Shown in pieces: positions 1 to 64,000 of a stretch of 64,000 nt of DNA. The stretch covers positions 7,398,601 through 7,462,600 of the forward strand of contig CAJINV010000003.1 of NCBI GenBank assembly GCA_905178155.1, given 5' to 3'. Both the position numbers and the translations under genes were made by a program. Within the stretch, counting starts at the first letter, position 1, and every line of letters begins with the position of its first letter. The stretch is from Amoebophrya sp. A120 (Eukaryota; Protista; Dinoflagellata). The notes under the pieces were generated by a model that searched no databases, was not told the origin of the DNA, and saw only the letters and a list, made by a program, of their open reading frames with translations.

Positions 1-2856
1 TCGATCTTTATCGCGGAAATCGTTGCGTCCACGTTTACCCAAGTCCCGTACAGATCTACGACGCTCGGAAGCGTTGCTTGCGCTACTTCTGTACCTCCGT
101 TCTGCAGGGTGTAATTAGCTTCATTAATATTTACGTCTATAGAAGATTGGACATCCCGACGGAAAACTACAAAACCCGCCACGTGGCGGGCCTGGAAATC
201 TGTCTGCCACCAGTTCGTGCCAGCACTCCCGGTTGAAGCGAAGCACTGCTCACAACGGTCTTTGATGCAGTTTTGAGTAGGATCGCTTCCGGCAGCGTGT
301 CCACCAAGGCCAAAAAGCTCATTGGGCATCCTCCGTAAGAAGACATTACCTGGGAAGTAGCCAGGATTGGCAAAGTCGTCGTCTTTGGAAAAGTATGTTG
401 AGCCGGCCGTTGCCGTTTGTTCGGAGGGGTCCACAAGCTGACCCCAGCATCCGCTCGGAAGGGTGCGCTTCGGCATATAGGCCTCCATTGACTGCCCCGA
501 ACAAGTGCCATACATACCCCAGGCGTCTGCGTTCCTGTTGTGGTTCCCAGGCGATTCGTCCCAAGAAAAGGGTGTCGGGTCCGTGTATGCAGCGAAAAAA
601 TCCAAAGTACACCGACCACCCCCAGATTTGAACGATTTCCTTAGCCCGGCACAGAACCTACTTTACATTTTGATTTTCATTTACTATACGGCAGAAAACT
701 ATATCGGACACGGGCACCCGGTAAAATTTCGTGCCGGCAAAATCCATTGCGTACTTGCCTTCCAAGGGGCACGAGTTGTAACGGTGCTTGACGTGTATGC
801 ATGAAAAACTATTATACCTGTACTTACCACTGTAACAACATGCCAAAGAAATGAAAAGCGAGCGTGGTTGCATGAGGATGGAAGTGTGCACTTCAACTTC
901 TACTTTTCTCTCGAATAAATTGCTTGACCACTTTCCTTGCAAGGCCCCAAAACCACTACGAAGACTTCGCCGGTACTCGTCCACAATGCTGAGAACGGTC
1001 CTGCGACAACTTCCGGTCATAATGGTCGAGTCGCTGTTGGGTTTTGCTTGTAGCTGCTCTTCAAAGTCCTCACCGCGGAGCAGCATCAGGGTGCACAACT
1101 CCGCCTCCCCCTCATCCGTTGTGTATCTACCTACAGTGACACAGACGAGACAAGCTCCAGTCAATGATGCAGTTTCATCAGAAACACAACTCTGTTACCG
1201 AGGATTTGTTTTTTCCTTATCTCGGCTTGCTTCTGAAAGTGTCTGTCATGCACAAAAAATGGCGAAGCAGAAAGTAAAAGTAAGAAGCGTCATCGTCATG
1301 ATGTAGTGGACACCCGTACCCAGCGCCACAGGTCAAGGATCCCCTTCCCGGGGGGTGGGCGAGGAAGCACTTATTTCGGCGACCTCATCAGACAATTTCG
1401 AATAGAAAGGATTGGGTAATACAATTTTGAATGACAAATGAGATGGAGAGGCAGCTGTGCGTTTTCATAAACAAGCGACAGCTGTCAAACATGTCTCCAT
1501 ATCAAGTGCAAATATGCCTGGGTCGGGAAGAATGCAACTTGTGATGCTGTACTTGGATTTGCGTGACGAGCAAGAAAAGTCCAGTTTGTGCTGCGCGGGG
1601 CGGGCATTTCTCATGCGGAATAAGCATCAGAGAGCTCTCGAAAAGTGTCTGATGCTAGGTCATGCATTACAGGCATCACGGGTCACGCAGAATATGCATG
1701 ATGACAAACTCTCCCAAGAAGCTTCCAGACCGCCCAGACATATTTGCATTTGATACTCCAGAATCTGAAACGAATCGAAGTCCCGTGCATTCGACAAGCT
1801 CGGCACAGTACGTAAGGCATTCGTAGTAGGTGCGCAATCCGCTAGCGCGATCGTACAGACCAATCGTATCGATTGCAGCGGCTGTACTATGCACGTTCAC
1901 GTGAATTGGGCAGTCTTCATACAGCGACAACTCCTTCGGCAAAGACGAAGTCGCCCCGGCGCCTCTGCGCAGCTTTGTAGTTGCATCGCTTAACCCAGCC
2001 GCGGCGACAACACGCTGTCCGCGGCGCTTCCGCTTGTCTTCACCTTCTCTCGCCTCATTTATCAACAGAAGTCCCCCCTCCCCATATCAAAACGAAATTT
2101 CTGATGCTAGATTTGGATACACAAATCAAATTTGTGTTGCAGTACAGGACTGCACGCAGATCGCAAGCCTCAGCAGGGGCCTTTTGGTGTAGGCGCCTAG
2201 CATGGTAGACGGCTTCCCTCTAGTAGGCCTTAATACAACACAAGAAATCGTCTGCATGACGTGGCGGACGGCCTGGACCTGCTTTCTTGCAAGACAGACG
2301 CGATTTGTGGCGACAAATCTGCATAACAAATTTTCGGACAATACGGGGAGCGGGGATTTTTCCTTGCAATACCATTATTTGCTTCTTCTACTTCGTACAG
2401 CTCATGCTTTTGCAGTAGAGCTGCGGCAACGTCCGTCGAAAACCCATCCGCAGGAGGAGATGGCGCAGGAGTGTCCTCTCGCAGCGCTGGCGTAACGGAT
2501 CCGGGAGCGAGTCGAGGTGCAGGTCGTGCCGGTTCTTCTACTAATACTTCAGCGCGACCGGTTGTTGATATAGGCTCAAAAGGCTGTCGCTCACGATCGA
2601 GTTGTACTTTCAGCACCTTATCACTTTCCTGCTTGCGGTGGCCCGACCCACCAGCATTGCTGCGACCTCTTGCGGCTCTGTTTGATTTCGGACGTGCTTG
2701 TCCGTGAACCCCGAAAGGACCTCTTTCATTCACCGGGAGAGATTCGTCGCGTTTTGATGCTGTGTTGCTTTGGTTGCGCTGACGCTGCTCCCTTTTTCGC
2801 ACGAAAGGCGTGAAAACACTTACACCGCTCCCATTTGATAGAATCTTGCCGGACAC
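1..2856 (-). CDS. Hypothetical multi-exon gene, probably running off the left edge
   Basis: Successive minus-strand ORF pieces (2230-2856, 1676-2065, 658-1164, 346-612). Removing element 1500-1755 plus one CTCCA keeps the 1676-2065 frame open (LRFVSDSG|DMFDSCRLF). No recognisable domain; exon boundaries uncertain. Confidence 0.4.
1290..1389. repeat. ~100 bp dispersed repeat, copy 1 (copy 2 at 42252-42353)
   Basis: Shared blocks TGGACACCC, CAGCGCCAC, CCCGGGGGGTGGGCGAGGA, GGAAGCACTT and TTCGGCGACCTCATC in the same order. Confidence 0.8.
1500..1755. mobile_element. Family A MITE-like introner
   Basis: Ends TATCAAGTGCAAATATG...CATATTTGCATTTGATA; 5-bp direct repeat CTCCA on both sides. Confidence 0.9.
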
Positions 2857-62289: not shown

Positions 62290-64000
62290 TCAGATTTTAC
62301 CCTTGGTCAAATAGTTGTCATTACAAGCCTCAAAAACGCTGGGTCGAGCGTCCTGGTCCCGCTGCAGCAATCGGCGGATGTAGTCTATCAAAAGGAAAGA
62401 TCCCCCCTGCTCCCCACATCAAAACGAAAAGTCGCTGGTGAAGATGGCCCTCTCGCAACAAGACAGAGGCGATTAACTATTTTGCGGTTCCACATTATCA
62501 GCATTGCAAATTTTCTGAGGCGTGCCAATTCGATATGGGGAGCGAGGGGGGATAATTTTCCTTTACGGTATAGTCCTGCGCTTCCTTGGACACTTTGGGC
62601 TGGTCGGGAAACTCCACCTCGAGTTTGGTGTCGCCCCGGAGGGCAGAATGGTAGAACTTGTCCTGGGTCTGGTCGTGGCCGAAGGGTTTCCGTCCGTACA
62701 GCATCTCGTAAAAGATCACTCCCACGGACCAAACATCCACCTTGTTGGAAACTTCCTGCGGCGCCTGTGGCTCCGATTTCTGGTGCTTGTTCTGAGGCCG
62801 CGGAAAGCACTCGATGGGCAGGTACCAGTAGGTGCCCGAGCCGATGCTCGTCAACTCACAAGCCCGCTCGGCGAATTCGCTGTTGATCTGCTCCAACGCA
62901 GGAACGTGGTTCTGTCCCTGTTGCTGCTGCTGCTTCTTGTGTTCCTTCTCGTCTCGCAGCTTTTTCAACCTGTAGATGAACCATGAACGCGGAGATTTTC
63001 TTCAAAGTAGTTTTAGAGCTCGGAACTACTTTACGCGACGGATTAGGTTCGCATTTCAAGGCCGATAAATGCTCACGGACAAGAAAAGACATGATGAGGT
63101 GGATCCTCAATTCTATGGGTTGTACCGATGTCGATGCTAGTGGTAGTACCTACTGCACCGGGGGGCCGTCATGACGAACACGAAGCCAATGTTGTATCAT
63201 TCCATTACCGCATTAATCATCCCAGCTATATAAAAATCAGACACCAGCTCACTTCCGTAGTTCCATCTCTCTTAGCATGCAAAGTGAAATAAATTGAGAC
63301 GACCGTACACGCCAAATAGCGCTTTCTCCTACGTCGTTTCCTGGTTAGCGTATTTACAACAACGACACCTATCAAAGCAAAAAAGTTCAGGCTCTGCTAC
63401 CGTTCCCCATCTGCGTCCTTGATCTCTCGAATTTTTGGGTTGATAGTCAGTTTCGTGTCGTCGATGAGGAGCGCCTGCTCCTTGTCTAATTTCTTATCCT
63501 GCTTCCGAACAGAGGCGGTGTTTGCGGACGACGACGAGGCCGCCGCAGCGTTCGCCCCGGTCGTTCCACTCCCGACCTGGTGGTTGTTGGCCTGAGCCGC
63601 GCCCGGCGTCACCGTTTTGTTATTGTTCCCCCCCTTGGTCGGCTGCCCCGCCGTCCCCGTCTGCTTTTGTTCTTTGACTCCAGCTGCTGCTCCGCCAGTG
63701 GTGGTTGATGGCGCAGCACCCGCTCCCGTCCCCGCCACGAGCTTCTGATTGTTCTGTTGTTCCACCTCCATGGATATCCCTCAGGAAAAATCTTAACCTG
63801 GCAGGTCATAAGATAATGGTGCATGTGCAAAAATAAAGTATACAAAATCTGTCCTCTTGCATGGCCCACGAAAGCATGTACGTACAGGCTCGCCCATGCC
63901 CGATTTTTGTTTTTCTGTGTTGTATTTGTCATACTAGTCATACACTATTTATTTGCATTGCAATCTGCCAGCTTCTCCCTCGTTCTGCGTGATATGGGAC
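62290..64000 (-). CDS. TLK: Tousled-like Ser/Thr protein kinase, 3' portion (continues beyond window)
   Basis: [68 protein letters not shown]; stop at 62290. Confidence 0.85.
62386..62570. mobile_element. TA-ended introner in the kinase
   Basis: TATCAAAAGGAAA...TTTCCTTTACGGTA; direct repeat TAGTC; excision gives [11 protein letters not shown]. Confidence 0.88.

Follow-up and report, generated by a model that had tools for sequence, protein, structure and literature searches.

A stretch of 64,000 nucleotides (nt) from Amoebophrya sp. A120 (contig CAJINV010000003.1, positions 7,398,601 to 7,462,600; hereafter the window) contains genes that are interrupted by TA-ended elements lying between 5-nt direct repeats (DRs). 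Our analysis points to introners resembling miniature inverted-repeat transposable elements (MITEs) that are removed together with 5 nt, likely in one fixed register and likely by a relaxed spliceosome that reads N-TAY (N, any base; Y, C or T) as its donor; we put the probability of this reading at about 0.6. TA-ended repeats of this kind are transposon-derived introns that have already been published for Amoebophrya sp. A120 (Farhat et al., 2021; PMC7789003). The first-pass annotation of the window referred to non-canonical introners known from Amoebophrya but understated the case, since the window stems from A120 itself. The cut register, the polarity of the intron ends, a predicted micro-exon and a nested pair of elements look unreported; they are based on 12 informative introns together with contig ends.

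Elements and their removal with five nucleotides

Three protein records were mapped exon by exon to the minus strand, which yielded 47 junctions: 35 TA-type, 11 GT-AG and one unresolved. With the ends chosen independently, intron length exceeded element length by 5 nt at 31 of the 35 TA-type junctions and in none of the 11 GT-AG introns. The four exceptions are a nested pair and three elements in which one arm is weak; each remains compatible with a +5 pair. Four junctions and two GT-AG introns that had been named as examples in the first-pass annotation were all located (Table 1), so that ordinary introns do indeed coexist with the elements in the same genes. Its further claim that removal of an element plus 5 nt restores the reading frame held in the annotated genes but only in part for the nine elements found outside them: removal clearly opens the frame in five (23984, 28663, 39625, 42034, and 42923), brings a modest gain in one (44014), and leaves a tie or a slightly worse frame in three (1500, 25007, and 62386).

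The sequencing runs that cover the stretch were X3, consisting of contigs whose RNA status is guessed, and X1, consisting of DNA-like contigs; the raw RNA runs X8 and X9 placed 1 and 3 reads, respectively, on the window, in repeats only, and are uninformative on removal. Four X3 contigs comprise an element plus about 30 nt on either side, and they end where an unspliced bubble arm in the graph would be expected to end if the element plus 5 nt is removed. Two spliced X3 pieces begin at the predicted positions, and all six X3 pieces touching an element thus agree with the prediction; X3 also contains unspliced arms. The joined form was not seen in DNA, because X1 contigs cross the same six elements unbroken and show no empty site there. 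The absence of the elements from transcripts, which the first-pass annotation had proposed as a check, is supported by six removals in the X3 contigs (probable RNA), with none in the DNA run.

Our final list holds 46 elements plus the outer member of the nested pair, 37 of them obtained via protein mapping and nine via geometry. The list is not exhaustive, as no protein was available for mapping the genes at 1-7000, 22000-27000, and 61100-64000. Element lengths range from 143 to 1672 nt, and 24 of the 46 fall between 185 and 400 nt with a perfect DR. An earlier count of 31 insertions of 185-400 bp was right in placing TA-ended elements with 5-nt DRs between positions 1500 and 62570, but not in its size range, and its members cannot be matched one-to-one with ours. 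The strict geometry NNNNN-TA...TA-NNNNN likewise stood in part: on the sense strand the 5' arm begins with TA in 46/46 elements, but seven of the 3' arms lack it (39/46 keep it) and 19 DRs carry one to five mismatches, leaving 27 perfect DRs and 36 with at most one mismatch. The DR is nearly or wholly lost at 19593-19895 (1/5 matches) and 19978-20225 (0/5).

The profile of the element ends reads TAT, seven variable bases and an A-run, with TAT present in 79 of 92 arms and positions 11-15 rich in A. The bare geometry is weak by itself and common by chance: a 5-nt DR with TA...TA was matched 131 times, compared with 82.7 +/- 9.9 times in 30 Markov shuffles, and 51 versus 23.8 times when restricted to 185-400 nt. 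Addition of an inverted-repeat match of at least 9/15 left 22 matches against 2.4 in the shuffles (maximum 5). When TAT...ATA ends and a match of at least 10/15 were required, a DR length of 5 gave 18 matches and lengths of 3, 4, 6, and 7 gave none. One candidate element (61832-62166) was dropped; its ends are poor and +5 removal shortened the frame.

Repeat finding within the window revealed a family of about 260 nt with long inverted ends. In a BLASTN comparison of 43 elements, the several distinct families announced by the first-pass annotation reduced to one family of nine members (family 1) and one further pair, all other elements being singletons in the window. One exact 30-nt end of family 1 was found by a scan at no fewer than 131 loci. 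The 151 matches listed contained 97 distinct complete copies, while 34 lacked the far end or the flank; their best identities to four window copies are 90-96%, and 84 of the 97 carry an exact 5-nt duplication, with duplications of 6-9 bp in none. Among these listed copies, no target preference was seen in the 84 perfect DRs. An excess of G at DR base 3 in the window (14 of 27 perfect DRs) was rejected, as it failed in the further copies (19 G and 24 C of 84; 9 G of 30 oriented), and a frame test on the 97 metagenome copies did not discriminate, with medians of 31-36 codons at all offsets. Each insertion has short inverted ends and lies within a 5-bp duplication, and family 1 inserts in both orientations; coding capacity was not found, given that 10 frames from the two longest elements and 14 frames in or near long elements had no Pfam match. 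Inverted ends, a duplication of fixed length, insertion in either orientation and lack of coding capacity are the marks of a MITE, or non-autonomous transposon with terminal inverted repeats, and the copies fit a DNA transposon that is non-autonomous and duplicates a 5-bp target.

The 800-nt element at 42034-42833 shares 105 nt at 80% identity with 1291-1389 and 156 nt at 70% with element 15969-16368; it may be a compound element, and 1291-1389 may belong to an unlisted one. The element of 1672 nt at 51782-53453, inside which a 46-nt sequence is directly repeated (51946-51988 and 53239-53284), may represent a compound element or a longer parent.

Cut position within the direct repeat

In a perfect DR the cut cannot be placed, while the product of an imperfect DR reveals which copy gave each base. 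We used for this purpose the 17 imperfect DRs at annotated junctions, 12 of which carry information on the cut. All 17 are compatible with base 4 as the last base before the cut, 14 with base 5, 12 with base 3, and 8 with base 2; cuts after base 3 or earlier are excluded by five of these DRs and a cut after base 5 by three. Under independent random cuts, a shared register arose in a fraction of only 0.0003 of 200,000 simulations. The intron at 19593-19895 permits base 4 alone, because only this cut gives the methionine shared with A25. At six junctions where the protein excludes some registers, the A25 orthologue P0123 has the same local peptide, and contig ends limit three junctions to bases 4-5, 4-5, and 2-4. 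All elements are likely cut at one fixed spot, which on this sequence evidence would lie after DR base 4, that is, 1 nt before the 5' TA and 4 nt past the 3' arm. The accessible part of the A120 genome paper is in keeping with this prediction: all nine predominant terminal pairs of non-canonical introns in its Table S4 begin with NT, with variable ends, and a comment there on four bases of the DR located upstream of the 5' end may point to the same register (PMC7789003). In A25, the predominant pairs begin with TT throughout. The DR can decay fully without any change in the removed length, and we infer that it is a transposition scar and not a splicing signal.

The micro-exon and the nested pair are cases on which the register rule was not built, and both were predicted from sequence. 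The last annotated intron of the creatine kinase gene (7204-7913) leaves its protein P0002 frameshifted. When all internal TAY splits were enumerated, one alone yielded the A25 sequence IRGCAAFV, namely two elements around a 4-nt exon. This split works at registers 2-4 but not at 5, and no single-intron option yields that sequence. The P0002 record thus likely ends in a frameshift, and the frame of the genome would continue to match the A25 C-terminus if the 4-nt exon is used. The second case is a 619-nt intron (17997-18615) that consists of 262+5 plus 347+5 nt, in which a family 1 copy has landed within the 5' end of a pre-existing element. Removal in one step at the fixed register would shift the frame, while two steps give the annotated serine with AGC as its predicted codon; the fixed-register rule accordingly predicts removal in two steps. 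The arrangement of these nested introners resembles that of stwintrons.

Intron ends, proposed mechanism and competing readings

At register 4 the introns read N-TAY...A(-7)NNNNNN. Their first base is G in 18/46 and their last two bases are AG in 1/46, so that the terminal dinucleotides are not the signal and two near-universal spliceosomal contacts are absent. The GT...AG termini of U2-type introns are thus not found under this register, while the donor bases +2 to +4 are those of canonical introns: TAY occupies these positions in 46/46 elements and equals the corresponding bases of the local GT-AG donors (GTA in 11/11 canonical donors of the annotated genes, GTAY in 8/11, and GTAC in 7/11), a likeness that depends on the inferred register. 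It had been reported that sliding of the junction through the DR creates no GT-AG pair in the cases checked; this is the case for 25 of the 27 perfect DRs, but two allow a GT-AG cut after base 1 (9864-10230 and 7942-8299), the former being the first-pass annotation's own V/WVNEEDH example.

The two ends have not been kept alike. TA is retained by the 5' arm in 46/46 elements versus 39/46 for the 3' arm (p = 0.012), A at -7 is present in 46/46 versus T at +4 in 40/46 (p = 0.026), and the 3' arm has better preserved the A-run, which appears there as a U-tract at -15 to -19. The arms begin alike, because family 1 copies occur in both orientations. Where DR base 5 differs between the copies, the 5' copy has G in 5/7 cases (p about 0.03-0.05), a weak sign of drift to a GT donor. 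Pairing of the ends in predicted folds is higher in TA-type than in GT-AG introns (33 versus 11 introns, p = 5e-5). The proposal that the cell reads a symmetric TA-terminal geometry instead of spliceosomal signals is not supported in that form: the DR can vanish and the 3' TA is altered in seven elements, while the invariant 5' TAY coincides with canonical donor bases.

We propose that a relaxed spliceosome would read donor bases +2 to +4 plus a 3' A with a ruler. The inverted end lying 5' would supply the donor bases, and the end lying 3' would supply both the U-tract at about -15 to -19 and the invariant A at -7 as candidate branch point; the 3' cut would be set by distance rather than by AG, and end-to-end pairing would help to bring the intron ends together. 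As an arm can function at whichever end it lies, an insertion would do almost no harm in either orientation. A more tentative extension, to which we give slightly less than even odds, is that the tens of thousands of "signal-less" introns of A120 share one hidden code, in which N-TAY at the 5' end is combined with a U-tract, an invariant A at -7 and a distance-set 3' cut lacking AG, and which is read directly by a U1-less spliceosome that has dispensed with both terminal G contacts.

Several points weigh against this mechanism and the evidence for it. The contig evidence comes from one run, guessed to be RNA, and was read from contig ends rather than raw reads, and the protein evidence leans partly on gene models that others built from transcript alignments. 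Base 4 alone is pinned by just one intron (19593-19895), the others only bounding it, and the boundaries in Table S4 depend on the aligner (PMC7789003). No correction was applied to the polarity p-values, which were selected once the table had been seen, and A at -7 may merely reflect the needs of pairing or of a transposase. No drift to AG is seen at the 3' end, and G is the first base in just 18 introns. Two of the 33 TA-type introns have no end pairing in the fold, and the key intron, the one intron for which this was compared, folds no better than its shuffles (z = -0.5).

The main rival keeps the same fixed register and assigns it to a separate, non-spliceosomal machinery that reads the paired inverted ends with fixed spacers of 1 and 4 nt. 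It comes nearest to the idea of the first-pass annotation, and we regard it as unlikely, if still the most serious competitor. Such hairpin-reading machinery has been discussed for Euglena, where paired motifs with 3-nt and 5-nt spacers were tested by knock-in (PMC12501133); it would need neither G at +1 (28/46 are not G) nor a final AG (45/46 lack it), the ends do pair in folds, and U1 small nuclear RNA (snRNA) was not found in A120 according to Farhat et al. (PMC7789003). It does not sit well with the asymmetric decay of the arms, nor with the six of 46 elements in which C at +4 stands opposite A at -7, which breaks the pair yet matches the donor GTAC. The G at base 5 of the 5' DR copy, as if drifting to a GT donor, also speaks against it, although a purine preference such as that reported for euglenids could explain the same bias (PMC4770533). 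The euglenid nonconventional introns share with the A120 elements non-canonical ends, paired inverted ends and direct repeats at the junctions (PMC12501133, PMC4770533, PMC11282704), as well as a cut at a fixed spacer from a paired motif, a code that was found there via non-slidable introns (PMC12501133). They belong to an unrelated lineage and use the motif CAG/CTG, with CAG in positions +4 to +6 pairing with CTG in positions -8 to -6; the A120 arms instead have TAY in positions +2 to +4 and A in position -7, with spacers of 1 and 4 nt. Euglenid introns are reported to be released as circles (PMC11282704).

A further reading has no common register: the cut would be set separately for each intron, within the DR or close to it, in some cases via GT-AG where the DR offers it. 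This accords with the legends of Fig. 3 and S23 of Farhat et al., which call the splice position "variable" and the border unknown (PMC7789003). The 27 perfect DRs among the 46 elements and five of the 17 imperfect ones are silent on the matter, and two elements are readable as GT-AG. We nevertheless consider this improbable, given that base 4 is common to all 17 imperfect DRs, that the simulation rarely produces such sharing, that bases on either side are excluded by individual introns, and that the micro-exon prediction fits. A hairpin next to a short direct repeat is a classic setting for template switching. That the joined form reflects not RNA splicing but excision at the DNA level, empty-site alleles or switching of reverse transcriptase between the DRs at the hairpin base gains something from the guessed RNA status of X3 and from its unspliced arms, but is very improbable in our view: the DNA contigs cross the six tested elements unbroken, conserved proteins require removal, and elements with DR matches of only 0-2/5 are removed at the same length, unlike what template switching would produce.

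Known introners, host genes and other features

In A120, about 65% of the introns supported by RNA-seq are non-canonical; the inverted repeats of the introners measure 8-20 nt and begin with TAT, seven variable nucleotides and at least three A, and their direct repeats of 3-5 nt overlap the exon-intron borders (5 bp in the example of Fig. S19). Almost all spliceosomal proteins are present, and no transposase is reported in the part of the paper accessible to us (PMC7789003). The window elements come from the same organism and have the same TAT-N7-AAA inverted repeats, direct repeats and non-GT-AG ends; in both sets, canonical introns are interspersed, families are many and no internal transposase is found. 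Inverted repeats, 3-5 nt direct repeats, family grouping and transcript removal with non-GT-AG ends were all recovered here, and the host proteins P0002 and P0125 are named A120 proteins that map exon by exon at 100% identity. As the host proteins are those of A120 and Farhat et al. described the elements, class, geometry and organism are already published, and as far as that description is accessible the elements themselves differ in nothing from it. The difference lies in the splice position, given there as variable or unknown, for which we propose a single register; to this we add a probable polar code, nested pair and micro-exon of 4 nt. We did not find a fixed A120 cut register in the literature searched, in which subscription papers are thinly covered and to which Figures S19-S25 of Farhat et al. 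may add.

Judged from the accessible parts of the respective reports, MITE-derived introns of Fritillaria borealis likewise have inverted repeats, target duplications, mass gain and non-GT-AG ends, but prefer AG-AC and AG-AT ends and an exonic TAC target, whereas the A120 ends are NT...NN and no target preference appears in the 84 perfect DRs among the matches listed (PMC11282704). The introners of Micromonas pusilla and Aureococcus are non-autonomous DNA transposons as well, and removal of the intron takes one copy of the duplication with it; their canonical splice sites are assembled from element and duplication, whereas in A120 only donor bases +2 to +4 are canonical (PMC11282704, PMC7789003).

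The creatine kinase gene was recognized through a 155-residue exon that is 100% identical to the 1346-residue protein P0002, whose cluster includes the A25 orthologue P0123; P0001 is 100% identical to P0002. A search with a second exon led to P0125. Its 32 annotated junctions comprise 23 TA-type, eight GT-AG and one that is likely a mis-annotated double intron. Intron positions are not the same in its repeated domains, which agrees with intron gain at a time when the domains had already been duplicated. Among 20 long window frames, only two had Pfam matches. Minus-strand frames of up to 1084 codons at 27074-32156 and 38544-46483 have no Pfam match and are broken by TA elements. A spliced X3 contig of 1572 nt covers a gene without a protein record at 22545-25697, and a protein search with its exon 25250-25555 gave no match. 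All identified genes lie on the minus strand, in agreement with the unidirectional clusters described for A120 (PMC7789003). A long gene-poor stretch contains adjoining arrays in which partly palindromic units, of 19 nt and of 29 nt, are repeated in tandem (33319-34116). A GC-rich repeat of 158 nt, unrelated to the TA elements, occurs in two copies with 87% identity (35747-35904 and 46593-46750).

Table 1. Genes, introns and TA-ended elements of the window (positions within the 64,000 nt; a slash separates the two copies of an imperfect DR).
Position	Strand	Feature	Basis or remark
7204-21926	-	Four-domain creatine kinase gene, A120 protein P0002, 1346 aa	Protein mapping
49934-54082	-	Diacylglycerol acyltransferase-like gene, P0126, 469 aa, mapping wholly to window	4 TA-type introns
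56203-61081	-	GAF-domain gene, A120 protein P0125, 599 aa	8 TA-type + 3 GT-AG introns
8785-9199	-	Canonical GT-AG intron, example	
12756-13037	-	Canonical GT-AG intron, example	
1500-1755	-	Family 1 element, perfect DR	Ambiguous host frame
7220-7451	-	Element, sense DR GGCTT/TCCTG, after predicted micro-exon	Inferred
7453-7456	-	Predicted 4-nt micro-exon	Inferred; restores reading of A25 orthologue P0123 at registers 2-4
7461-7912	-	Element, sense DR TCGGG/TCGCG, before predicted micro-exon	Inferred
7942-8299	-	Element, perfect DR GGTGG	GT-AG possible by sliding
8334-8732	-	Element, perfect DR TCGAA	DISN/SDRLG junction
9358-9732	-	Element, DR CTATG/CTACG	Uninformative for register
9864-10230	-	Element, perfect DR GGTCT	V/WVNEED junction; GT-AG possible by sliding
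10269-10495	-	Element, perfect DR CGGAA	
10648-10991	-	Element, DR CGCGG/CGTGG	Cut after base 3-5
11075-11351	-	Element, DR CCGCC/ATGGC	Cut after base 4-5; contig ends
11468-11764	-	Element, perfect DR GCTGG	X3 contig ends fit removal
11821-12082	-	Family 1 element, perfect DR CGGCG	
13226-13517	-	Element, DR GAATG/GGATC	Cut after base 2-4; spliced X3 contig
14448-14786	-	Element, perfect DR CTTCG	
14916-15223	-	Element, DR CTAGC/CTGCC	Cut after base 4-5; protein and contig ends
15969-16368	-	Element, perfect DR CGACA, 3' arm a CA variant	X3 contig ends fit removal
16465-16709	-	Element, DR GTCGG/GTTGA	Cut after base 3-5
17050-17363	-	Element, DR GCAGA/ACGGA	Cut after base 3-5
17453-17671	-	Element, perfect DR CGAAC	
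17703-17889	-	Element, DR GTGAG/ATCAA	Cut after base 1-4
18002-18348	-	Outer element of nested pair, 347 nt, DR GAAGT/CAAAC once inner removed	Inferred
18353-18614	-	Inner element of nested pair, family 1, perfect DR AAGTT	In 5' end of outer element
18696-18957	-	Family 1 element, perfect DR GCTAC	
19593-19895	-	Element, DR ATCAG/AAGGT	Base-4 cut alone yields Met shared with A25
19978-20225	-	Element without remaining DR (TGGGG/CAATC)	Cut after base 4-5
21111-21327	-	Element, DR AGTTC/AATTC	Uninformative
21489-21869	-	Element, DR CTATT/CTCTT	Cut after base 3-5
23984-24126	-	Element, perfect DR	+5 removal opens frame
25007-25246	-	Element, perfect DR	Spliced X3 contig piece begins at 25247
28663-28946	-	Family 1 element, perfect DR	+5 removal joins 1070 + 527 open codons
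39625-39940	-	Element, perfect DR	+5 removal joins 697 + 358 open codons
42034-42833	-	800-nt element, perfect DR	
42923-43186	-	Family 1 element, perfect DR	
44014-44401	-	Element, perfect DR	
50290-50574	-	Family 1 element, perfect DR TTGGG	CIG/KPI junction
50663-51063	-	Element, DR GAAAA/TTAAA	Cut after base 2-5
51349-51712	-	Element, DR CCTGG/CCTAG	Cut after base 4-5 (earlier cuts create stop)
51782-53453	-	1672-nt element, perfect DR GTTTT	No Pfam match in 8 internal frames
56413-56678	-	Element, perfect DR CCGAA	
56882-57149	-	Family 1 element, perfect DR ATGAA	
57229-57587	-	Element, DR CCGAC/CTGAC	Uninformative
57719-57926	-	Element, perfect DR TCGTG	
58075-58364	-	Element, DR TCCTC/TCCCC	Uninformative
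58553-58877	-	Element, DR CACGA/TACGA	Uninformative
58931-59195	-	Family 1 element, perfect DR GAACT	Orientation opposite to 18696
60152-60361	-	Element, perfect DR ATCGG	CDR/VSIF junction
62386-62570	-	Element, perfect DR	Within protein kinase frame

With a fixed cut, the border and mechanism left open in 2021 would gain exact predictions, namely one peak in a histogram of cut positions, one base at the nested junction, one micro-exon and one candidate branch A. Such a cut would also permit rule-based re-annotation of A120 genes, where at least one public protein appears to be frameshifted. If the spliceosomal step of our reading is true, these introns would represent natural splicing without either terminal G. 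Should the hidden code hold as well, a transposon may land in either orientation, inside the donor of another intron, or so as to leave an exon of 4 nt, almost free of cost to Amoebophrya sp. A120.

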